The notes: generated by a model not told the origin, from the letters alone. DNA of 32,000 bases from Nostoc sp. PCC 7120 = FACHB-418 (GCF_000009705.1 NC_003272.1:6180001-6212000); one strand, 5' to 3'; positions 21,987 to 31,578 are shown, counted from the first letter of the stretch. Program-made: numbers and translations.

Positions 21987-23275
21987 AGGTGGCTTTTATT
22001 GTTTGGCGGTTTCCGGTTTTATCTGAGGCTTTTATTCTTAACCAAATTACGGGTTTAATTGATAGGGGGCATGAAGTTTGTATTCATCCTGTGAATGGTT
22101 TACCGAAGGATTATACAGGGAAGTTACATCCGGTTGTGGAAGAATATCGGCTGATGGAACGTGTATGTTTCCCTCCTCATGTTCCTAACAATCTTATTTG
22201 GCGCTTTTTTAAAGGTGTTGGCTTATTCATTAGGAATATTCATCAGGGTTCTTGCAAAACTTGGCGATTTTTTATTCCGGGAAGATATGGCAAGGAAGTA
22301 GCTACTTTAAAAACATTCTACAGAATTGTAGGGTTACTGAAAGATGGCTCTTATGATATTATTCACTGTCAATTCGGAACTTTAGCGCCTATTGCTTTAG
22401 CCTATCGGGAAGTGGGGATAATTTCTGGTAAATTAATCACGACTTTTCGCGGGATTGATATTAGTAAATATGTCGAGGAAAATGGCATTGATGTTTATGA
22501 GCAACTCTTTCAGGAAGGGGAGTTTTTCTTGGCAAATTGTCAATTTTTTGGCGATCGCGCGATTAATTTAGGCTGCAATCCTGATAAACTGATAATTCAT
22601 GGTTCTGGTTTAGATTGTAATAAGTTCACCTTCAAACCTCGCTATTTTCCTGCTGATGGGAAAGTACAAGTGGCGACCACAGGAAGATTGGTAGAAAAAA
22701 AGGGGATTGAATACGCTATTCGTGCAGTTGCTAAAGTAGCTGAACTTTACCCCAATATTGAGTATCAAGTTATCGGCGATGGCGATTTAAAGGAAGATTT
22801 AGAACAATTAATCACAGAATTGAATATTGGTCATATCGTCAAATTATTGGGATGGAAGCAGCAAAAAGAAATTGTGGAGATTCTGGAAAATACCCACATT
22901 TTTATCGCGCCTAGTGTGACGGCTGCGGATGGTAATCAAGATGCACCAGTCAACACCTTAAAAGAAGCGATGGCGATGGGTTTACCTGTGATTAGTACCA
23001 GACATGGGGGGATTCCTGAATTAGTCACAGACGGGGTTTCTGGGTTTTTAGTCCCTGAACGAGATGCAGAGGCGATCGCTCATAAGTTAACCTATCTTAT
23101 AGAGCATCCAGAATTGTGGGAAGAAATGGGTAAAGCTGGACGTGGACGTGTTGCAGAAAAATACGACATGAACAAGCTAAATGATGAATTGGTGGAAATT
23201 TATCAACAAATGCTCAAGTCAGCATCACCCCAACAAGATTTGCAGCATCTACCAAAAGAATTAACCGCTATTTAA
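21983..23275 (+). CDS. GT4-family glycosyltransferase (tandem copy 1)
   Basis: 430 aa. ATGA start/stop overlap with the phosphatase gene. MKVAFIVWRFPVLSEAFILNQI.. N-domain. ..ATTGRLVEKKGIEYAI.. and ..DGNQDAPVNTLKEAMAMGLPVISTRHGGIPELVTDGVSGFLVPE.. Glycos_transf_1 domain. Confidence 0.9.
   Translation: MKVAFIVWRFPVLSEAFILNQITGLIDRGHEVCIHPVNGLPKDYTGKLHPVVEEYRLMERVCFPPHVPNNLIWRFFKGVGLFIRNIHQGSCKTWRFFIPGRYGKEVATLKTFYRIVGLLKDGSYDIIHCQFGTLAPIALAYREVGIISGKLITTFRGIDISKYVEENGIDVYEQLFQEGEFFLANCQFFGDRAINLGCNPDKLIIHGSGLDCNKFTFKPRYFPADGKVQVATTGRLVEKKGIEYAIRAVAKVAELYPNIEYQVIGDGDLKEDLEQLITELNIGHIVKLLGWKQQKEIVEILENTHIFIAPSVTAADGNQDAPVNTLKEAMAMGLPVISTRHGGIPELVTDGVSGFLVPERDAEAIAHKLTYLIEHPELWEEMGKAGRGRVAEKYDMNKLNDELVEIYQQMLKSASPQQDLQHLPKELTAI
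22928..23275 (+). repeat. 348-nt near-identical tract, copy A (partner at 24227-24574)
   Basis: Manual alignment at a constant offset of 1299 nt gives about 11 mismatches and no indels. There is only 1 mismatch in the first ~175 nt. Identity drops sharply immediately upstream of 22928/24227. Confidence 0.9.
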
Positions 23276-23284
23276 CTACGAAAT

Positions 23285-24574
23285 ATGAAAGTAGCATTTT
23301 TTGTTGCCCATTTTCCTGTGCTATCTGAACCCTTCATTTTAAATCAAATTGTCGGTACGATAGAACGCGGACATGAAGTTGATATCTACTCCCTTGATGG
23401 TATTCCCCAAGATACATCTAAATTGCATCCCTTGGTCGAACAATATCACCTCATGGAACGCACAATTTACGCTCCCACTAGACCAGATAATGAGTTATGG
23501 CGTTGGATAAAAGGCTTGAGTCTACTGTTAATCAATTTTCATAAAAACCCTAGCGTCTGTCTGCAATTACTCAATACTTCGTGCTATGTTAGTCAGGCGA
23601 AATCCTTGAAAATGCTTTATCGAGCATTACCATTTTTAAAAACAAAATCTTACGATATTATCCACTGTCAATTTAGCACCTTGGGCGTGTTCGGTGTGTG
23701 GTTTCGCCAACTTGGTTTAATTGAGGGTAAATTAATTTCCACCTTCCGGGGTTCAGATATTAGTAAATTTTTACCCAAATGGGGAGAACAGGTTTATCAA
23801 GAACTATTCCAGGAAACAGACTTTTTCTTAGCTAACTGCGAATTTTTTAAAGATAAAGCCGTGGCGTTGGGATGTGATGCTGATAAAATTCATGTCCACG
23901 GTTCAGGAATTGATAGTAACAGTTTCTTTTTTCAAGAACGCTCTTATCCTCATGATGGTATTATCCGCATTGCTACTACTGGGCGTTTGGTAGAGAAAAA
24001 AGGGATTGAGTATGTAATTAAAGCTGTTGCTCAAGTCATAAAAAATTATCCCGATATTGAGTATAACATTATTGGTGATGGAGAACTGAAAACACATTTT
24101 GAAAAACTAATTTTTGAATTAAATCTTAGTCAAAATGTGAAATTATTAGGCTGGAAACAACAAAAAGAGATTGTTGATATTTTGGATAAATGTCATATTT
24201 TTGTGGCTCCTAGTGTAACTGGTAAAGATGGTAATCAAGATGCACCAGTCAACACCTTAAAAGAAGCGATGGCGATGGGTTTACCTGTGATTAGTACCAG
24301 ACACGGGGGGATTCCTGAATTAGTCACAGACGGGGTTTCTGGGTTTTTAGTCCCTGAACGAGATGCAGAGGCGATCGCTCATAAGTTAACCTATCTCATA
24401 GAACATCCAGAATTGTGGAAAAAAATGGGTAAAGCTGGACGTGGACGTGTTGAAGAAAAATACGACATGAACAAGCTAAATGATGAATTGGTGGAAATTT
24501 ATCAACAAATGCTCAATTCAGCATCACCCCAACAAGATTTTCAACATCTACCAAAAGAATTGACGGCTATTTAA
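23285..24574 (+). CDS. GT4-family glycosyltransferase (tandem copy 2)
   Basis: 429 aa, collinear with copy 1. The N-terminal ~310 aa are clearly diverged and the C-terminal ~115 aa are nearly identical. Confidence 0.9.
   Translation: MKVAFFVAHFPVLSEPFILNQIVGTIERGHEVDIYSLDGIPQDTSKLHPLVEQYHLMERTIYAPTRPDNELWRWIKGLSLLLINFHKNPSVCLQLLNTSCYVSQAKSLKMLYRALPFLKTKSYDIIHCQFSTLGVFGVWFRQLGLIEGKLISTFRGSDISKFLPKWGEQVYQELFQETDFFLANCEFFKDKAVALGCDADKIHVHGSGIDSNSFFFQERSYPHDGIIRIATTGRLVEKKGIEYVIKAVAQVIKNYPDIEYNIIGDGELKTHFEKLIFELNLSQNVKLLGWKQQKEIVDILDKCHIFVAPSVTGKDGNQDAPVNTLKEAMAMGLPVISTRHGGIPELVTDGVSGFLVPERDAEAIAHKLTYLIEHPELWKKMGKAGRGRVEEKYDMNKLNDELVEIYQQMLNSASPQQDFQHLPKELTAI
24227..24574 (+). repeat. 348-nt near-identical tract, copy B
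   Basis: See 22928-23275. Confidence 0.9.
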
Positions 24575-25909: not shown

Positions 25910-26362
25910 TTTCCCAAAATTGTCAAAGATATCCTGAAAGGATTGCCAAAAAATGATTATCCAGTATTGAACAGTCGTCTGTTATTTGAGTTCTGGCTAT
26001 CTTACGTCTTGGATAATAGCTTAACAAGTATGCGAGGTTTATTTGCCAGGCTAAATAATACAGGATTTGAGTTAGATATTTCTACTTTTTCTAAAGCAAA
26101 TTTGCATCGAAGCCAAAAACCCTTTCAAGCAATTTACCAAAAATTAAATAAATTAGTCCAAAATAAAGCTGAGAATAAACTCCATAATAAATATGCAATA
26201 TACTCGATTGATTCCACAGTTATTACATTAACTAGTAAGTTGTTATGGGTGCTGGGTCATCCAGAGCGTAAAACTTTTTTAGATAAATTCCGCTATTTAC
26301 AATCCTGTATGTGTCAGAAAATCAGTTATTTTCATTGGTTTGAAGAGATGATGTTATGTTGA
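25910..26362 (+). pseudogene. truncated IS4-like (DDE) transposase N-terminal fragment
   Basis: The open frame FPKIVKDILKGLPKNDYPVLNSRLLFEFWLSYVLDNSLTSMRGLFARLNNTGFELDISTFSKANLHRSQKPF...YSIDSTVITLTSKLLW resembles the N-terminus of cyanobacterial IS4-family transposases. It has no ATG (a stop lies at 25907). Transposase-like sequence ends after ~105 aa, and no DDE core or terminal repeats were seen. Confidence 0.5.
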
Positions 26363-26588: not shown

Positions 26589-27287
26589 ATGGGAATGCGG
26601 AGAGCGGATCGTCGAGATTCTAATCATGACAATTCAGTTAATAATCCTCGCACACCTCGAAAAGAACCAGCTCCACCCCATGAGCTTAAGCAGCTACTGA
26701 TGACGGTTCGCGCCCAACGTGATGAATGGCAAGAAATTGCTAAACAAAATGAGGAAGCAGCATCTCAACTGGTTCATGTTCAGCAAACACTTCAAACCTA
26801 TCAAGTTGAAGCTAATGATCTCAAAGAGCGCGTGACCCAAAATTACCAGCTTTATCTCGACGAACAACAAAGATATCAGCAGACTCTCTGCCTCTACAAC
26901 GAAGAAAAAATTAGAGCAAATGAATTATTTACCCAATATGAGACAACAAACTCTGAACGAGAAATGTATTTGACTCTATACAATGAAGCCAAAGCGGAAC
27001 TCAAGTATGAGCGACGTTCTAAAGCTAGTATTAAAGGATGGGAAACTCGTCGTAAAGCCGAGAACGAAAAACTAAAGCGAGAAATCGCTGAAATGGTTGT
27101 GCTATTGCGTGAATCTTTGGCTGGTAAGGAAGAAGCTGTCAACAGCCTCTACGTTGTAGCAGAGCGTATGGATCGGATTCAATCTTTAGTTGATTTGGCT
27201 GATGAAGAAACAACAAGCAATCCTGTAGGCCTGGTACAAAAATTTAGACGCATCTGGCTTGCTATTAAAGAGATACTTTCTGATTGA
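26589..27287 (+). CDS. hypothetical coiled-coil protein (232 aa)
   Basis: Long ORF with a basic N-terminus followed by Gln/Glu/Lys-rich heptad-like sequence. No recognisable enzymatic motif. Its stop codon abuts the predicted 3' end of the group II intron on the opposite strand. Confidence 0.5.
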   Translation: MGMRRADRRDSNHDNSVNNPRTPRKEPAPPHELKQLLMTVRAQRDEWQEIAKQNEEAASQLVHVQQTLQTYQVEANDLKERVTQNYQLYLDEQQRYQQTLCLYNEEKIRANELFTQYETTNSEREMYLTLYNEAKAELKYERRSKASIKGWETRRKAENEKLKREIAEMVVLLRESLAGKEEAVNSLYVVAERMDRIQSLVDLADEETTSNPVGLVQKFRRIWLAIKEILSD

Positions 27288-27329
27288 TTAGAGTCGATAC
27301 CTAAATTACTCTAGGACACCTCTCCTTCA

Positions 27330-27363
27330 GAACCGTGCGTGCAACTTTCACTGCACACGGCTC
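27330..27363 (-). ncRNA. group II intron domain V
   Basis: The minus strand reads GAGCCGUGUGCAGUGAAAGUUGCACGCACGGUUC. This is a 34-nt hairpin with the AGC catalytic triad, a 2-nt bulge geometry and a GAAA tetraloop. It lies 26 nt downstream of the IEP stop, after a closing DIV stem CCUAGU/ACUAGG. Confidence 0.9.
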
Positions 27364-27389
27364 CTAGTTTGATACCTACTAGGTTGGGG

Positions 27390-28967
27390 TTAACCCACCG
27401 TTCGGACTCTCACCTGACCATGAATAGTCTGATGCTGGTGACATTCTCGGTGTAGAACTTCCAGATTGTTAGGCTTCCAATTATCATGGTTGCCATCAAT
27501 GTGGTGTAATTCTGCAATATCCCCAGAGATGAACGATAGGTTACATTCTGTACATTTATGATTCTGTTTCTTGAGAAGTCTTGCCGTTACCCCGTCGTAG
27601 TTTACATTTTCCCGTTTTGACCAGTAAACAAAGTCGCCATCGTATGGGGATTTATCCTCCGTTACGTTATTGAATCTGCAAGCTGCCCATTTTACGGCGG
27701 GAAATGCTCTATGTATAACCTGATTGGTTTGGTCGCGGTTGTATCTTCCTTGTTTGCGAATGAACTTCCATGTCCAATAGGCTATAGCCCATAGGTTATG
27801 TTGGCTCATATCACAGAATCGATGATAGTTTCTCCACCCTCGAACTATCGCACCGCATTTGTCGATACGTTCCTCTAGAGTGAAACAACTGTCTTTCATC
27901 ACTTCTTTGACTTTTGCCTTGATGCTACTTGTAGCCTTTTGACTTGGTGTTGAAATGAATTTACCATTGGGTTTAACTACAAAGTTCCACCCAAGGAAGT
28001 CGAAACTATCTGTACTATGTACAATTTTAGTTTTGGCTTCTTTGACTTTTAATCCTCTTGCTTCCAAGAAGGTATCAATATTTTGTCTGAGAGCTTCTGG
28101 GTTGTCTTCAGGTTTCAGTAAGAACACCACATCATCCGCATAACGGAATCCCTTGATGGTGTCTATTTGTCTGCCCCCACTTCTAACTTTGTATCTTAGT
28201 TCGTGACCAACATTTTCTAGTCCGTGTAGAACTATATTTGCCAGTAACGGACTGATTACGCCGCCTTGCGGTGTGCCGGATTCTGATGAAGGAAATTCCC
28301 CCCTGACTCCGGCTTTAATAGCCCAAAATATTCCCTGTTTTGCTGCCTTTGGTAGTTGGACAGATTGCATTAAAAATTTATGGTCAATCTTGTCGAAACA
28401 CCTTTCGATATCCAGTTCTAATATTCTTTTACTTAATCCGTTGGCTTGCCCACCGTTTAAGTTGCTGAATAATAATTTTTGTACATCGTGGCAACTTCTG
28501 CCAGGTCTAAACCCGTATGAACGGGCATTGAACATAGCTTCTGCTGCTGGTTCCAAGGCATATTTGATTAGACATTGATATGCTCTATCGCTGATGGTTG
28601 GTATCCCTAATCCCCTTCTAGTTCCGTCTGCCTTGGGAATGTACACTCGCTTTAAGGGCTGGTGCTTCCATTGTTTCCAGTTCTTGACTAGCACTTCGTA
28701 GAGTGCCAATCTTTGAGAGGGTTCGAGGGCTTTCTTTCCGTCCACCCCTGCGGTTTTCCGTCCAGTATTTAGCTGCGTTACCTGCCGGATAGCGAGTAAT
28801 TTAGCTGCTTTAGAGCTTAATAAAAGTTTCTGAAGTTTGCGTACTAGGCGCGTGTTACCGTTCTTTTGAGCCTTGAATATTCTCACTTGTAGGCGAAATA
28901 CGATTTTCCGCAGCTTGCGCCACGGTATCGATTTCCATTTATCAACTGGATTTAACTCCGTTGTCAT
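27390..28967 (-). CDS. group II intron reverse transcriptase/maturase with C-terminal HNH endonuclease domain
   Basis: MTTELNPVDKWKSIPWRKLRKIVFRLQVRIFKAQ.. is a typical IEP N-terminus. RT motifs include ..GIPTISDRAYQ.., ..GTPQGGVISPLLANI.. and ..FRYADDVVF.. (YADD). The X/maturase region contains ..IVRGWRNYHRFC... HNH motif: ..CTECN......ELHHIDGNHDNWKPNNLEVLHRECHQ... The track ORF begins at an upstream GTG (29009); the ATG at 28967 is preferred. Confidence 0.9.
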   Translation of the reverse strand: MTTELNPVDKWKSIPWRKLRKIVFRLQVRIFKAQKNGNTRLVRKLQKLLLSSKAAKLLAIRQVTQLNTGRKTAGVDGKKALEPSQRLALYEVLVKNWKQWKHQPLKRVYIPKADGTRRGLGIPTISDRAYQCLIKYALEPAAEAMFNARSYGFRPGRSCHDVQKLLFSNLNGGQANGLSKRILELDIERCFDKIDHKFLMQSVQLPKAAKQGIFWAIKAGVRGEFPSSESGTPQGGVISPLLANIVLHGLENVGHELRYKVRSGGRQIDTIKGFRYADDVVFLLKPEDNPEALRQNIDTFLEARGLKVKEAKTKIVHSTDSFDFLGWNFVVKPNGKFISTPSQKATSSIKAKVKEVMKDSCFTLEERIDKCGAIVRGWRNYHRFCDMSQHNLWAIAYWTWKFIRKQGRYNRDQTNQVIHRAFPAVKWAACRFNNVTEDKSPYDGDFVYWSKRENVNYDGVTARLLKKQNHKCTECNLSFISGDIAELHHIDGNHDNWKPNNLEVLHRECHQHQTIHGQVRVRTVG

Positions 28968-29592
28968 AACGTTCTCTACGCCTTTGAATATTTTCTGTAC
29001 AAACCGCACCCAGTCGTCTAAGAGTCCTTATTTCTTAGATTTTCGAGTACATCTTACCAACTCTACCCGCTAAACCTTATTTAAGGGTTCCACAGCTTAA
29101 TTGCTGGAGGTTGAAAGAGCCGTTTTATTCGTTCCTCAGTTTAGTTGGTTTGTAGTTTTAGGTTCTCTCACTTCGCCCACGATTTCCCAGAAAAGCATCT
29201 ATCGAATGTAAGATGATGCGGGTATTTTCACACTTTTGGTGCTATCTTGTGTCGTTGTTCGTCTTTGAGTTCAGACGATGCGGGTTGGACGCTTTTTCTG
29301 AGAGTTCAACTGCTGTTTAACCATGACTACCTGCCTGTACGAGTTACCCCCATCTCAGGTTTGTTATCCTCGTTTTGCTCCCAGCTTCATTTTCAGAGTT
29401 TGTTCTCTGTCCATGTGGGCAAATTTTGGCTTCACGTCTTTCCTAACGGGTGAGACTTGTCCTGCGACGCACTCACACTATACTGAAGTTATCCTTGCTT
29501 TCTTTGAGGTTAAATTATTTCTAATTGACCAAGGCGGTGCAAGGACTCTATTCCCCACAGCTTTCGCTATGTTTCATAGAAACGAACCGCAC

Positions 29593-29790
29593 ACATCCTC
29601 CCACCGCTAATCAGGAGTACCTGATATAGCGGGGGATTCCAAAGATCGCTCTTTGGGCTTCCTCTTTCCACGAGTTGATTTGCTTGAAGGAGTTTTCTCA
29701 CTCAAGTATTGATCAGTCTCTCCAGAGGCGTTGGTTCCGACGTGACCCGCCGTACTTAATGCTTTTTCTAATATGTTCCGCGCCGCGTTC
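29593..29790 (-). ncRNA. predicted TnpB omega-RNA (reRNA) scaffold region
   Basis: By analogy with characterised TnpB systems, the guide RNA scaffold overlaps the tnpB 3' end and RE and ends at the transposon boundary. No covariance model could be run and the extent is a guess. Confidence 0.3.
29604..29632 (-). other. IS right-end (RE) subterminal hairpin, spans the tnpB stop codon
   Basis: Minus strand: CCGCUA[U]AUCAGG-UACU-CCUGAUUAGCGG. This is a 12-bp stem with one extrahelical U on the 5' arm. A lower extension CCC/GGG follows a 1-nt 3' bulge. Confidence 0.75.
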
Positions 29791-30848
29791 CAGTCCCGGT
29801 CTTGGGTATGCCCACAACGAGGACAAACATGGGTTCTAGTGCTAAGAGTCTTTTTGACAATCTCGCCACAATTAGAGCAATTTTGCGAAGTGTAGTGAGG
29901 CAGAACTGCAACAGTTACCACGCCAAAAACCTTACCAAAATACTCAACCCACTCCCGGAACAGCGACCACGACACATCACTAATCGACTTAGCCAAGCGG
30001 TGATTTTTCACCATATTCCGCACCTGCAAATCCTCATACGCCACAAGGTCGTTAGACTTCACTACGCACCTTGCTGTCTTGACAGCAAAGTCTTTACGCT
30101 GGCGACTTACTTTGAGATGCTTACGAGCAAGTTTATTTCTAAACTTAATTCTGTTTTGAGAACCCTTTTTGGTCTTAGACATCCGGCGTTGCAATCGTCT
30201 CAAAGACTTTTCACTTTTGCGAAGATGTCTAGGATTGGCGACTGTTTCCCCGTTACTATCTGTATAAAAGTGGTTCAATCCCACATCAATGCCAATAGTT
30301 TTACCCGTTGGTTTTCGCTTTTCTACTCGTTCATGGTCAATGCAAAACCGGCAATAATAGCCATCCGCACGACGCACAACCCGCACCCTTTTAAACTGTT
30401 TAAGTTGGTAGAAATGCAGGTCACGGGTTCCCCAAAGCTTGAAAGTTCCTGCTTTAAATCCATCGGAGAAAGTGATGTACCTGCGGTCATCAGAAAGTCG
30501 CCATCCACAAGTTTTGTACTCTACAGAACCGTGCGTTTGCTCTTTCTTGAACTTTGGGAATCCCTTTTTTCCTGGTTTCTTTTTCTTGCAGTTATCAAAA
30601 AACCGAGCAATAGCAGACCACGCTCTTTCTGCACTGGCTTGACGAGCCATCGAGTTGAGATTTTTCGCAAACTCAAACTGTTGTGCTAACACAGCACAAT
30701 ATGCGGAAAGCTCATATCTGCCTATATCTTTATTGTCCATCCAGTATCTCAGACAGCTATTACGAACAAAACGAGCAGTTCTAATCGCCTCATCTAGCGA
30801 TTGATACTGCTCATCCAGTCCCTCAAGTTTTGCCTCAAATACCAGCAT
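29607..30848 (-). CDS. tnpB: TnpB (OrfB) RNA-guided endonuclease, IS200/IS605 family
   Basis: MLVFEAKLEG.. is a typical TnpB N-terminus. The RuvC triad is intact: D in TIGIDVGLNHF, E in LVAYEDLQVRNM, D in HTQDRDWNAARNI. The zinc-finger insertion CSNCG...CPRCGH is present. The 30 extra N-terminal codons in the track ORF (to 30938) lie in the LE and are not credible. Confidence 0.9.
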   Translation of the reverse strand: MLVFEAKLEGLDEQYQSLDEAIRTARFVRNSCLRYWMDNKDIGRYELSAYCAVLAQQFEFAKNLNSMARQASAERAWSAIARFFDNCKKKKPGKKGFPKFKKEQTHGSVEYKTCGWRLSDDRRYITFSDGFKAGTFKLWGTRDLHFYQLKQFKRVRVVRRADGYYCRFCIDHERVEKRKPTGKTIGIDVGLNHFYTDSNGETVANPRHLRKSEKSLRRLQRRMSKTKKGSQNRIKFRNKLARKHLKVSRQRKDFAVKTARCVVKSNDLVAYEDLQVRNMVKNHRLAKSISDVSWSLFREWVEYFGKVFGVVTVAVLPHYTSQNCSNCGEIVKKTLSTRTHVCPRCGHTQDRDWNAARNILEKALSTAGHVGTNASGETDQYLSEKTPSSKSTRGKRKPKERSLESPAISGTPD

Positions 30849-30999
30849 ATTTACGTCGCATTTGCTAATGTAAATTATGACGTAGATTTGCAAAAAACTC
30901 AACGGTTCCCTCTCCCTTACTGGCTTGTAGCCAGTCATGGTCGGAGAACGTCTCGTTTTTTGCCCTGTCTACGACACGCTACGCGAACGATTCATCTCG

Positions 31000-31023
31000 C
31001 CGCCAAATCAAAGATTATGGCGG
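31000..31023 (-). other. IS left-end (LE) subterminal hairpin
   Basis: Minus strand: CCGCCA[U]AAUC-UUU-GAUUUGGCGG. This is a 10-bp stem with an extrahelical U at the same position (after 6 bp) as in the RE hairpin. A lower extension CUC/GAG follows a 1-nt 3' bulge. Confidence 0.7.
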
Positions 31024-31059
31024 GAGCCTTCTCTCCGAATAAGGTAAAGCTGTATCCTT

Positions 31060-31578
31060 ATGGGTAAAAAATCAGTACCAGTCACACAAAGCAAAGCAAC
31101 ATTGGGAAATCAAATTCGTAGTATTGCCGATCGCCTCAAACAAGAAACTGAGGTACAAATAAAAGCAACCTCCCGTATTTTAGACGCTGCTGCTCAAATT
31201 TCGCAAAATCATGAGCGACTAATTAACGAAGTAGTTGAGATGGTTGAAGAAGACCTTGAGCAAGAAAGCCAGATTTATAACGTTGATATTCTGAAACAAC
31301 AGTTTAAAACATTACGTGAAGCCAAAGGTCACTTTAATTTGAAAGTCAATAGTTGGGAAGCTCTGGCTAACAAATTAAATGAACCGTCTTTGCAAGAGTG
31401 TTTCTTGGAGCAGAAACATCCGTCAGACGCTATCAGGAAAGAGGAACATGGACACAAGAAGATAGAAAAGATTACCGTTGGTTTACAGCCTGATGTTGCA
31501 GAAATTTTTCCTACTGAGGAAGCAGTAAATGAAGCTCTGCGTTTTTTAATCAGAATTACAAATAAACATCTTGATTAA
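31060..31578 (+). CDS. hypothetical protein (172 aa), helical/charged
   Basis: Complete ORF starting 16 nt beyond the inferred IS left boundary. No recognisable motif. Confidence 0.45.
   Translation: MGKKSVPVTQSKATLGNQIRSIADRLKQETEVQIKATSRILDAAAQISQNHERLINEVVEMVEEDLEQESQIYNVDILKQQFKTLREAKGHFNLKVNSWEALANKLNEPSLQECFLEQKHPSDAIRKEEHGHKKIEKITVGLQPDVAEIFPTEEAVNEALRFLIRITNKHLD

Follow-up and report, generated by a model that had tools for sequence, protein, structure and literature searches.

The tnpB gene of an IS200/IS605 element in Nostoc/Anabaena sp. PCC 7120 is followed closely by a group II intron in the same orientation. This raises the question of where exactly the intron lies relative to the right end (RE) of the insertion sequence (IS), which is also the region from which the TnpB guide RNA is expected, and how it came to be there. 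According to a preliminary description, the intron either splits the 3' end of the omega-RNA scaffold or occupies the guide position. Here, the locus is analyzed within a 32,000-nt stretch of DNA (the window). All positions refer to this window and all features lie on the minus strand.

The IS element and the structured RNA at its right end

The element contains tnpB only (IS1341-type). The gene (29607..30848) encodes a full-length protein of 413 aa, which was confirmed by matches to Pfam (OrfB_IS605, 5.8e-32; Cas12f1-like_TNB, 1.2e-20) and to the NCBIfam model guided_TnpB (NF040570; 280.8 bits, cut-off 100). Both the RuvC-like domain, with the motif DRDWNAA, and the zinc ribbon that characterize TnpB were found with these databases. 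The protein is 76-92% identical to 80 relatives across residues 1-413. The Y1 transposase TnpA is not encoded in the element, where tnpB and the intron ORF are the sole ORFs between the left end (LE) and RE. The IS is non-autonomous, as is usual for the IS1341-type subgroup.

The LE (30996..31043) includes a hairpin at 31026-30996. Position 31043, previously given as the end of the whole feature, stood as the first LE base, at which homology to relatives starts. Directly 5' of it lies the target TTAC (TAM; 31044..31047), which is present in 29 of the 31 relatives that share its LE subtype; the sequence upstream of TTAC differs among these 31. Intron-less copies, which the preliminary description had proposed to search for, could be identified and define the other end. 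Of 80 intron-less relatives, 78 share an RE that runs ...GGGAGGATGTCAA and diverge only past CAA, with RE ending in ...ATGTCAA and a variable next base (T 41, A 15, G 12, C 7). The RE tail is the longest invariant and most conserved stretch of the IS. The subterminal hairpins in LE and RE, the insertion 3' of a short target, and the precise, conserved ends with variable flanks are those of an IS200/IS605 element.

At the 3' end of tnpB, and overlapping it, covariation identified a structured RNA (about 29593..29752) with helices H1-H6 and the tail GGAUGU. In an alignment of 48 sequences its 34 pairs were 98.8% paired, compared to 41-54% in slid controls, and 21 pairs had changes on both sides, a number reached in 0 of 500 shuffles. 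No Rfam family matched the scaffold RNA. A conserved structured RNA ending at the RE boundary corresponds to what defines a TnpB guide RNA (omega RNA or reRNA), and judged by covariation the region is a putative scaffold of this kind. Its terminal hairpin, H6, is the RE subterminal hairpin (29599..29636; -26 kcal/mol, z = -3.3). The helix is kept across the 48 relatives, with sequence changes between subfamilies that preserve pairing, and contains the tnpB stop codon TAG (29609-29607). That tnpB ends in a strong RE hairpin was therefore correct as first described. The hairpin of 29604-29632 given at that time is the core of a longer conserved helix (29636-29599). Likewise, the distance of 11 nt between hairpin and intron applies to the shorter core, and from the covariation-supported foot (A 29599) it is 6 nt (GGAUGU).

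The intron and its position within RE

Rfam, splice-end and EBS/IBS evidence all identified a complete group II intron of type IIB (27287..29592; 2306 nt), co-oriented with tnpB. Read from 29592, its 5' end is GUGCGGUUCG, in which GUGCG fits the consensus GUGYG, and its 3' end is ...CGACUCUAAU; both ends are as in relatives. When the window was scanned with Rfam, the only match was Intron_gpII (RF00029, domains V/VI) at 27365-27287, with 65.1 bits at a gathering score of 40. Domain V was placed at 27330..27363 by this match and by folding, and domain VI at 27287..27325. Folding of 27400-27287 yielded both helices and, in domain VI, a bulged GA; its A is located 8 nt upstream of the 3' splice site, within the 7-8 nt that are usual for group II introns. 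The intron-encoded protein (IEP; 27390..28967, 525 aa) has reverse transcriptase and maturase domains (RVT_N, RVT_1 and GIIM in Pfam), as expected of a protein encoded in domain IV of a bacterial group II intron, reaches 318 bits with TIGR04416 (cut-off 300), and has as its closest solved relative the maturase reverse transcriptase in PDB 6ME0 chain C (E = 4e-73). The C-terminus is HNH-like: a CxxC...HH...N...H...CH pattern is seen, and the match to HNH (PF01844) is weak (E = 0.0031; 18.1 bits, under the cut-off of 21.4). From its 5' GUGCG, domains V and VI, bulged A and full IEP ORF the intron looks intact. The preliminary description of a complete, co-oriented intron with IEP and domains V and VI thus held, except that the intron ends at 27287 and not at 27288.

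In the window, the order is ...GGGAGGATGT, the intron, and CAA plus flank. The CAA (27284..27286) immediately 3' of the intron represents the last three bases of RE, moved by 2.3 kb. Comparison with the intron-less relatives (...GGGAGGATGTCAA) confirmed that the intron sits within RE, 3 nt before its end, and neither at the scaffold/guide junction nor in the guide. Since the final RE bases are found beyond the intron, the intron entered RE, and it was not the IS that landed beside an existing intron. Three earlier proposals can be judged from this. RE had been taken to end at the 5' end of the intron, which overlooked the CAA. A position in the guide, or exactly at the junction, is contradicted by the RE boundary of the intron-less relatives. 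The alternative that the intron splits the 3' end of the scaffold was borne out, 3 nt upstream of the junction. Removal of the intron joins ...GGAUGU to CAA and the original flank, the canonical RE/flank junction of intron-less copies; as had been suggested, splicing would thus restore a conventional junction.

Exon recognition and related introns at other sites

The preliminary description had asked for a search for complementarity between the exon-binding sites EBS1 and EBS2 and the 5' exon, and 11 of 11 positions were found to pair. EBS2 (CCCGC, 29280..29284) forms 5/5 pairs, one of them G-U, with IBS2 (GUGGG, exon -12..-8, 29600..29604), which is part of the RE hairpin's 3' strand. EBS1 (ACAUUC, 29204..29209), the final six loop bases of the hairpin GCAUCAUC...GAUAGAUGC, forms 6/6 pairs, again with one G-U, with IBS1 (GGAUGU, exon -6..-1, 29593..29598) in the conserved RE tail. 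EBS3 (G 29171, within GCGAAGUGAGAG) pairs 1/1 with IBS3, the C at 27286, which is the first base of the 3' exon and part of CAA. The assignments are supported by covariation in 14 related introns: EBS2 forms 5/5 pairs with exon -12..-8 in all 14, compared to 3.0 on the exons of other introns, and EBS1 forms on average 5.6/6 pairs with its own exon -6..-1 and 2.5 with other exons. For EBS3, 9 of 10 relatives show complementarity to the base that opens the 3' exon, and all 10 do so when G-U is counted. EBS1 and EBS2 of the window intron together form 3-8 pairs on the exons of 13 related introns, compared to the 11 on their own, a match that exceeds chance.

With EBS2, EBS1 and EBS3, the intron RNA recognizes 12 bases (GUGGG-A-GGAUGU and, past the insertion point, C), all of which are in RE. 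As the paired bases all belong to the conserved RE tail, every copy of the IS could potentially receive the intron, irrespective of the flanking sequence. The predicted target sequence in RE is GTGGGAGGATGTCAA, and the exact target, G[C/T]GGGAGGATGT followed across the insertion point by C, is present in 36 of 78 related IS copies with a conserved tail.

Among the 80 genome loci with related IS copies, none contained the intron, and exact-protein look-up in the assemblies examined found no second locus with the same TnpB or the same IEP. The junction is single-copy by this measure, and the exact combination of this IS family and intron was not found to recur in genomes. Homing into this IS family therefore appears to be rare or confined to genomes that hold the intron.

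In metagenomes, introns 87-95% identical at the nucleotide level occupy the same RE site in contigs L186, L187 and L189. The L189 junction reads ...GCGGGAGGATGT, intron, CAAT, and the element is a tnpB-less miniature. In L186 it reads ...GCGGGAGTATGT, intron, CAAT, with EBS1 altered to the matching ACAUAC; L187 carries the same intron with another flank past CAAT. A second TnpB family is occupied in L191, L192 and L193, which encode a TnpB of 398 aa that is only 30% identical to that of the window. Here the intron lies 1 nt from the RE end (...TCGGGTAGTTCA, intron, C), with matching EBS1 UGAACU and EBS2 CCCGA. L093 has an intron at the same second TnpB family. L191 and L192 are 99.9% identical over 3756 nt, comprising IS, intron and C, and differ in both flanks. 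Contigs from metagenomes may, however, be chimeras joined at the repeated 2.3-kb intron, and for L190 and L179/L180 the 5' flanks mismatch the introns' own EBS sequences, so that differing 3' flanks are weaker evidence than 5' junctions. Another related intron (L172) is found in a hairpin tail of LE type, and many are nested in the domain V/VI regions of other introns (twintrons). A site within an IS and independently occupied copies (the window, L186, L187 and L189; L191, L192 and L093 for the second family) are the marks of an intron that homes into IS elements. Together, the junctions show that the window intron belongs to a cyanobacterial lineage in which the pairings have been retargeted to several kinds of repeated mobile DNA, namely this RE tail, that of a second TnpB family, an LE tail and other introns.

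Explanation of the locus and comparison with known systems

Boundaries and pairings argue that, very probably, a mobile IIB intron retrohomed into RE of a tnpB-only IS200/IS605 element and belongs to a lineage that homes into the ends of such elements. This favors the earlier suggestion of a parasite of a parasite, with an intron family that homes into the conserved RE, since EBS1, EBS2 and EBS3 pair only with RE bases and relatives occupy the same and second-family sites. Overall, the initial observation was confirmed and its interpretation is partly supported.

For the guide RNA, the proposed consequences are as follows. The intron would be transcribed by read-through from tnpB, and in the unspliced transcript 2.3 kb would lie between the scaffold on one side and its final CAA and the guide on the other, so that a conventional guide RNA should arise only via splicing. 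Given where RE ends and how published TnpB guide RNAs are built (PMC10055086), the flank directly beyond RE, UCAGAAAGUAUCUCUUUAAU (27264..27283), is predicted to serve as the guide once the RNA is spliced and would direct TnpB to TTAC followed by TCAGAAAGTATCTC.... The same 20 nt are also antisense to the 3' end of an ORF of 232 aa. Because IBS2 forms part of the terminal hairpin (its 3' strand), formation of this hairpin, and binding of TnpB, should compete with intron-exon pairing. At the DNA level, TnpA cutting at the true end of an IS200/IS605 element needs the RE hairpin near the terminal cleavage motif, as in the IS608 model. The intron splits the two, and this copy of the IS should consequently resist excision by TnpA and have lost its mobility.

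Other origins of the locus were weighed against retrohoming. A chance or decayed juxtaposition, in which the IS landed by an old intron or a dead intron remnant is unrelated to RE, would agree with a junction that is unique in the genomes searched. The boundaries and the covariation, however, already contradict it, and it is extremely improbable: the final three RE bases are on the far side of the intron, all 11 EBS/IBS positions and EBS3-IBS3 pair with RE, ORF and ribozyme domains are intact, and diverged relatives hold the same site. It is also improbable, though less so, that IS and intron transpose together as one element. The near-identity of L191 and L192 between different flanks on both sides is what such a unit would produce, but one intron homing independently into two recent IS copies fits the same data. 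Moreover, in the IS family of the window the combination exists at one genomic locus only, and with the RE hairpin cut off from the terminal cleavage motif, TnpA should fail at the true end by the IS608 model (PMC10055086).

More plausible, but still doubtful, is that the locus has been co-opted for regulation as a group II version of the IStrons, a module in which the position at the scaffold end was selected and IS and intron share a control circuit, with splicing gating guide-RNA maturation or TnpB and the hairpin gating splicing. The short distances between insertion and RE end, 3 nt in one TnpB family and 1 nt in another, with a canonical scaffold plus guide predicted from both spliced products, would fit this, as would the mutually exclusive structures of IBS2 and the terminal hairpin and the group I precedent for an interplay of splicing and guide RNA (PMC10690162). 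On the other hand, the status of the RE tail as the longest invariant stretch of the IS suffices to explain the site, relatives reside in an LE tail, a tnpB-less miniature element (L189) and other introns without involvement of a guide RNA, and the intron is absent from most IS copies.

Retrohoming into an IS end has precedents. Group II introns homing into IS elements and their ends are already known in general from Sinorhizobium meliloti, where RmInt1 resides in ISRm2011-2 and RmInt2 in the inverted repeats of ISRm17 (PMC4615759). As in the window, the natural homing sites of both lie within insertion sequences, the RmInt2 sites in terminal repeats turn multicopy IS ends into landing sites, and related introns differ in EBS/IBS specificity (PMC4615759). 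Their host IS elements, however, are not of the IS200/IS605 type and lack a guide RNA, whereas the target here is the tail of the subterminal hairpin of an IS200/IS605 element and also the 3' end of a TnpB scaffold. Recognition by EBS1, EBS2 and EBS3 is that of cyanobacterial IIB introns, including twintrons. A literature search found no description of a group II intron in IS200/IS605 ends, nor of cyanobacterial IIB introns that target them.

IStrons combine a group I intron with an IS605/IS607 element carrying TnpB (PMC10690162, PMC4227781) and, like the locus studied here, have intron and TnpB guide RNA on one transcript at RE, where the ratio of splicing to guide-RNA formation is expected to depend on RNA structure. 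In IStrons, however, the ribozyme is of group I, the intron encloses the entire IS, both are mobilized jointly as a single DNA transposon, and splicing and guide-RNA formation are mutually exclusive, whereas in the window guide RNA would require splicing. The window intron belongs to group II, is a retroelement in its own right that lies within RE at 3 nt from the end, and is missing from most IS copies. Its identity as an IStron was rejected on the group II-only Rfam match, the nested position and the 0/80 IS relatives with intron.

Class C (IIC) introns, which have been linked with integrons (PMC7923331), are similar to the window intron in that its insertion is just 3' of a stable stem-loop. 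Membership in class C was likewise rejected, as EBS2 is present and covaries in 14/14 relatives. IIC introns insert after terminator or attC stem-loops, are not known to have an EBS2 and recognize the stem-loop itself. In the window intron, by contrast, EBS2 takes the stem's 3' strand as its partner, and the hairpin must therefore open.

The tnpB element and its group II intron

The tnpB open reading frame (30848-29607, minus strand, 413 aa) matched the Pfam families OrfB_IS605 (5.8e-32) and Cas12f1-like_TNB (1.2e-20) and scored 281 bits against the NCBIfam model guided_TnpB (cut-off 100). TnpB and its flanking proteins are found under the accessions BAB76904/06/07 (Nostoc/Anabaena sp. PCC 7120). 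On the same strand, 15 bases past the tnpB stop codon, a group II intron starts at 29592 with GUGCGGUUCG. It encodes a protein of 525 aa (28967-27390, minus strand) with RVT_N, RVT_1 and GIIM domains, which reached 318 bits against the equivalog TIGR04416 (cut-off 300) and carries a weak HNH match at its C-terminus (E = 0.003). The closest solved relative of this protein is chain C of PDB entry 6ME0, a "maturase reverse transcriptase" (E = 4e-73). Domains V and VI were identified by Rfam at 27365-27287 on the minus strand (65.1 bits, gathering score 40) and folded as expected, with a bulged A 8 nt from the 3' end of the intron. At the sequence level, the intron was shown to be complete and co-oriented with tnpB.

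Because no empty site of this IS was obtained (L177 and L178, the two further loci, come from the same strain and both carry the intron), its boundaries rest on 80 loci with TnpB relatives that are 76-92% identical to the window TnpB. The intron was present in none of the 80. A common 3' end, ...GA(G/A/T)(G/A/T)AT(G/T)TCAA, was observed in 78 of them, and the base after CAA is variable (T 41, A 15, G 12, C 7). TTAC directly precedes the start of the 5' homology in 29 of the 31 relatives of the same left end (LE) subtype. In the window this places the TTAC target at 31047-31044 and the start of the IS at 31043, from where it continues on the minus strand to ...GGGAGGATGT at 29593. The last intron base, 27287, is directly followed by the final bases of the right end (RE), CAA (27286-27284), and the flank, which begins with TCAGAAAGTATCTC..., starts at 27283 as the first base outside the RE. 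Judged by these relatives, the intron lies within the RE, with only 3 nt of the RE beyond it.

The preliminary description had placed the intron at the RE end of a tnpB element, which is confirmed here with slightly corrected coordinates. It had considered that the intron either splits the guide-RNA scaffold or occupies the position of the guide. Since the three terminal RE bases are found past the intron, the former holds and the latter does not. For the same reason the intron must have entered the IS and not the reverse, and landing of the IS beside a pre-existing intron is ruled out. As had been proposed, the RE end could be defined from intron-less elements, here the related IS; the match to a known guide-RNA family that had been sought along with it was not obtained, as Rfam searches at permissive E-values with the tnpB 3' end/RE and with the intron-less relative L013 gave chance matches only.

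With its borders at 27284-27290 and 31044-31062, the IS lies exactly between two co-oriented plus-strand ORFs of 232 and 172 aa, and their genes are now parted by 3.76 kb of antisense mobile DNA. When TTAC is joined to the flank, the 232-aa ORF would have ended in GAG TAA before the insertion, which was probably swapped for GAT TGA. Nearby, in a gene-poor gap beside a glycosyltransferase cluster, a 139-aa ORF (25943-26362, plus strand) had no Pfam match and by eye resembles a transposase fragment. A direct repeat (22405-22792 and 23704-24091, 65-71% identical, spacing 1299 nt) corresponds to two adjacent paralogous ORFs of 430 and 429 aa in the glycosyltransferase cluster.

Structured RNA at the tnpB 3' end and exon pairing

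The last 230 nt of 48 elements were aligned, with the window entered in its spliced form. Six helices were identified between ~29752 and 29599, with standard pairs in 98.8% of cells. Changes on both sides were found in 21 of 34 pairs, a number reached by 0 of 500 shuffles, and when the partners were slid by 1-3 columns as a control, 41-54% remained paired. The last helix is the RE hairpin (29636-29599, minus strand, -26 kcal/mol, z = -3.3), which is directly followed by an invariant 9-nt tail, GGAUGUCAA. In the TnpB guide RNA, the scaffold consists of the tnpB 3' end and the RE, and the guide comes from the flanking sequence that borders the transposon (PMC10055086). The layout of the window RNA, a putative guide RNA, matches this published arrangement.

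Domain I of the window intron was aligned with that of 13 relatives with known 5' exons, and three short segments covary with the exons in these 14 introns. EBS1, the last six bases of its loop, matched exon positions -6 to -1 with a mean of 5.6/6 for the intron's own exon and 2.5 for other exons. EBS2 matched positions -12 to -8 at 5/5 in all 14 introns, compared to 3.0 on other exons, and EBS3, a single base in GCGAAGUGAGAG, complements the first base of the 3' exon in 9/10. In the window, all on the minus strand, EBS2 CCCGC (29284-29280) pairs with GUGGG (29604-29600), EBS1 ACAUUC (29209-29204) with GGAUGU (29598-29593) and EBS3 G (29171) with C 27286. A test of the complementarity of EBS1 and EBS2 to the 5' exon on the tnpB side had been suggested, and the pairing partner is the RE tail. 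The intron RNA reads no base outside the conserved RE, as even the +1 C is part of the terminal CAA. Among the 78 related IS copies with a conserved tail, 36 have the exact target, G[C/T]GGGAGGATGT before and C after the intron site, and all 36 are unoccupied. An early EBS2 candidate chosen by eye (CACCGCC near 29535) was dropped, as the covarying column is the CCCGC at 29284-29280. Recognition of a stem-loop as in class C introns is ruled out, because EBS2 pairs with the stem. As IBS2, the exon partner of EBS2, is located in the 3' strand of the terminal hairpin, formation of the hairpin and intron-exon pairing are mutually exclusive.

Sites occupied by related introns

In look-ups, the exact TnpB and the exact intron-encoded protein were found at this locus only (in many assemblies of one strain), but proteins 81-92% identical to the latter are common in metagenomes, where contigs may be chimeric across the repeated intron, a caveat for the flanks of the relatives. 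Recurrence of the junction, which the preliminary description had considered, is therefore not seen for the exact proteins, but it is seen for the intron lineage (L186, L187, L189 and a second TnpB family). L189 reads ...TAGTGGCGGGAGGATGT, intron, CAATCTG; its RE tail is the same as in the window, and tnpB is absent within 850 nt upstream. L186 reads ...TCAGTGGCGGGAGTATGT, intron, CAATGAC, and its EBS1, altered to ACAUAC, pairs perfectly with GUAUGU. In L187 an intron identical to that of L186 is followed by CAAT and a different flank.

The arrangement also recurs in the second TnpB family. L191, L192 and L193 encode a TnpB of 398 aa that is 30% identical to that of the window, and their RE, ...GGAAGCCCGCTCTCTATCCGTAGGATGAGAGTCGGGTAGTTCA, is followed by the intron and C. 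EBS1 UGAACU and EBS2 CCCGA match this RE perfectly. Between L191 and L192 the IS, the intron and the C are 99.9% identical, while both flanks differ. L093, of the same family, reads ...GGTAGTTGA, intron, CGTTG behind a truncated tnpB. Intron-less REs of this family read GGGTAGTTCAC followed by A (L054) and GGTAGTTGAC followed by T (L056), and from these two examples the intron appears to lie 1 nt from the RE end. Introns that home into IS ends, a "parasite of a parasite", had been suggested as an alternative, and this is now the better-supported reading, with the same behavior recurring in the relatives.

In L172 the intron follows a hairpin tail, ...GAGCGACGGGATGAAAG, that resembles the LE of L093 and L191; this locus was dropped as an RE junction after that comparison. 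Other members form twintrons, inserted within or shortly after domain V of another intron (L094-L097, L165, L175/L176), or occupy unrelated sites (L091, L092, L098, L099). By a rough count, IS200/IS605 ends represent five to seven of ~13 distinct sites in the intron clade. L179/L180 and L190 were left out of this count because pairing of their EBS with their own 5' flanks is absent. EBS1 and EBS2 of these loci (L179:1-130, L180, L190:1-20) predict an RE-tail target, and the mismatched flanks may reflect ectopic insertions or chimeric metagenome assemblies. Neither junction sequence was found in the viral contigs scanned. The plasmid search gave intron-less RE fragments and only an ORF-deleted derivative in another intron (H1/L195). 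This derivative (NZ_CP117772.1 117201-124905) is located on a 1-Mb plasmid of Nostoc sp. UHCC 0926; intron positions 100-927 are joined to 1457-2306, with 83% identity, and it is apparently nested in the other intron.

L186 (417-513) carries two different group II introns in one RE. The second one (Rfam, 47 bits) terminates within the RE hairpin with the 3' end ...CUCGACUCAAC, which leaves 18-19 nt between it and the RE-tail intron downstream. Introns of this second type also terminate ~30 nt ahead of tnpB or within its 5' part (L065:220-300, L111:1823-1920), so that introns hit TnpB elements at several positions. In L191 (1-128) the LE of the second family directly adjoins a group II intron 5' end in reverse complement, which shares 78% identity with the window intron over 126 nt.

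Predicted consequences for the guide RNA

Retrohoming into the RE probably brought the intron here. Its preference for this site is most simply explained by conservation: no other invariant stretch of the IS is as long as the tail, and the intron thereby gains as many landing sites as possible. The site may also have been selected for a regulatory role, but the data do not call for one. Since the intron begins only 15 nt after the stop codon, read-through from tnpB is the likely source of its transcript. The scaffold in this precursor RNA would be separated by 2.3 kb from its own last three bases and from the guide. A conventional guide RNA would exist only in the spliced RNA, with the predicted junction ...GGGAGGAUGU joined to CAAUCAGAAAG; it would be aimed at TTAC followed by TCAGAAAGTATCTC..., which is the empty site (predicted target TTAC+TCAGAAAGTATCTCTT). 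The IBS2-EBS2 pairing would face competition from the hairpin and probably also from TnpB binding. At the DNA level, insertion has parted the RE hairpin from the terminal cleavage motif, and by the IS608 model TnpA should therefore not excise this IS copy.

Homing of group II introns into IS is known for RmInt1, which targets ISRm2011-2, and for RmInt2, which targets the inverted repeats of ISRm17 (PMC4615759). Group I IStrons are an established case of interplay between self-splicing and a TnpB guide RNA: the intron encloses the complete IS, and splicing and formation of the guide are mutually exclusive (PMC10690162; PMC4227781). In contrast, in the window a group II retroelement lies between scaffold and guide, and thus splicing should be needed for the guide RNA. 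This link is a reasonable, predicted consequence of the arrangement. Full-text literature searches gave no account of a group II intron located in a TnpB guide RNA or in the end of an IS200/IS605 element, and the aim at the end of a guide-RNA scaffold is, as far as found, new. To our knowledge, the group I IStron is so far the only self-splicing intron described as entangled with a TnpB guide RNA.

The full model, in which a cyanobacterial intron lineage has specialized on the last bases of TnpB guide-RNA scaffolds from at least two TnpB families, group II splicing is required for a functional guide RNA in occupied copies, IBS2-EBS2 pairing is opposed by the terminal hairpin and TnpB binding, and the host IS is locked against TnpA excision, is a tentative and, taken as a whole, rather unlikely proposal. 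If true, it would describe an RNA-guided nuclease gated by splicing, with a logic opposite to that of IStrons, in elements that are the ancestors of Cas12, and an IS locked in place by its intron. The locus offers a natural system for the interaction of three selfish activities, namely transposition, RNA-guided cleavage and retrohoming, and the use of IS200/IS605 ends as landing sites for group II introns bears on the proliferation of both kinds of element in cyanobacterial genomes. As PCC 7120 is a model strain amenable to genetics, the predictions are directly testable.

Two further nested arrangements were observed. In L175 (153-6008) and L176, the twintron lies directly upstream of an IscB-like gene (RRXRR and HNH), and the protein of the inner intron is 86% identical to that of the window intron. 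As IscB guide RNAs are encoded upstream of iscB, this case is possibly analogous to that of TnpB. In L163 (2521-2579), the match to the intron-encoded protein breaks off at residue 203, and a hairpin and an RE-like GGTAGTTGAC motif follow; here an IS200/IS605 element may have inserted inside an intron.
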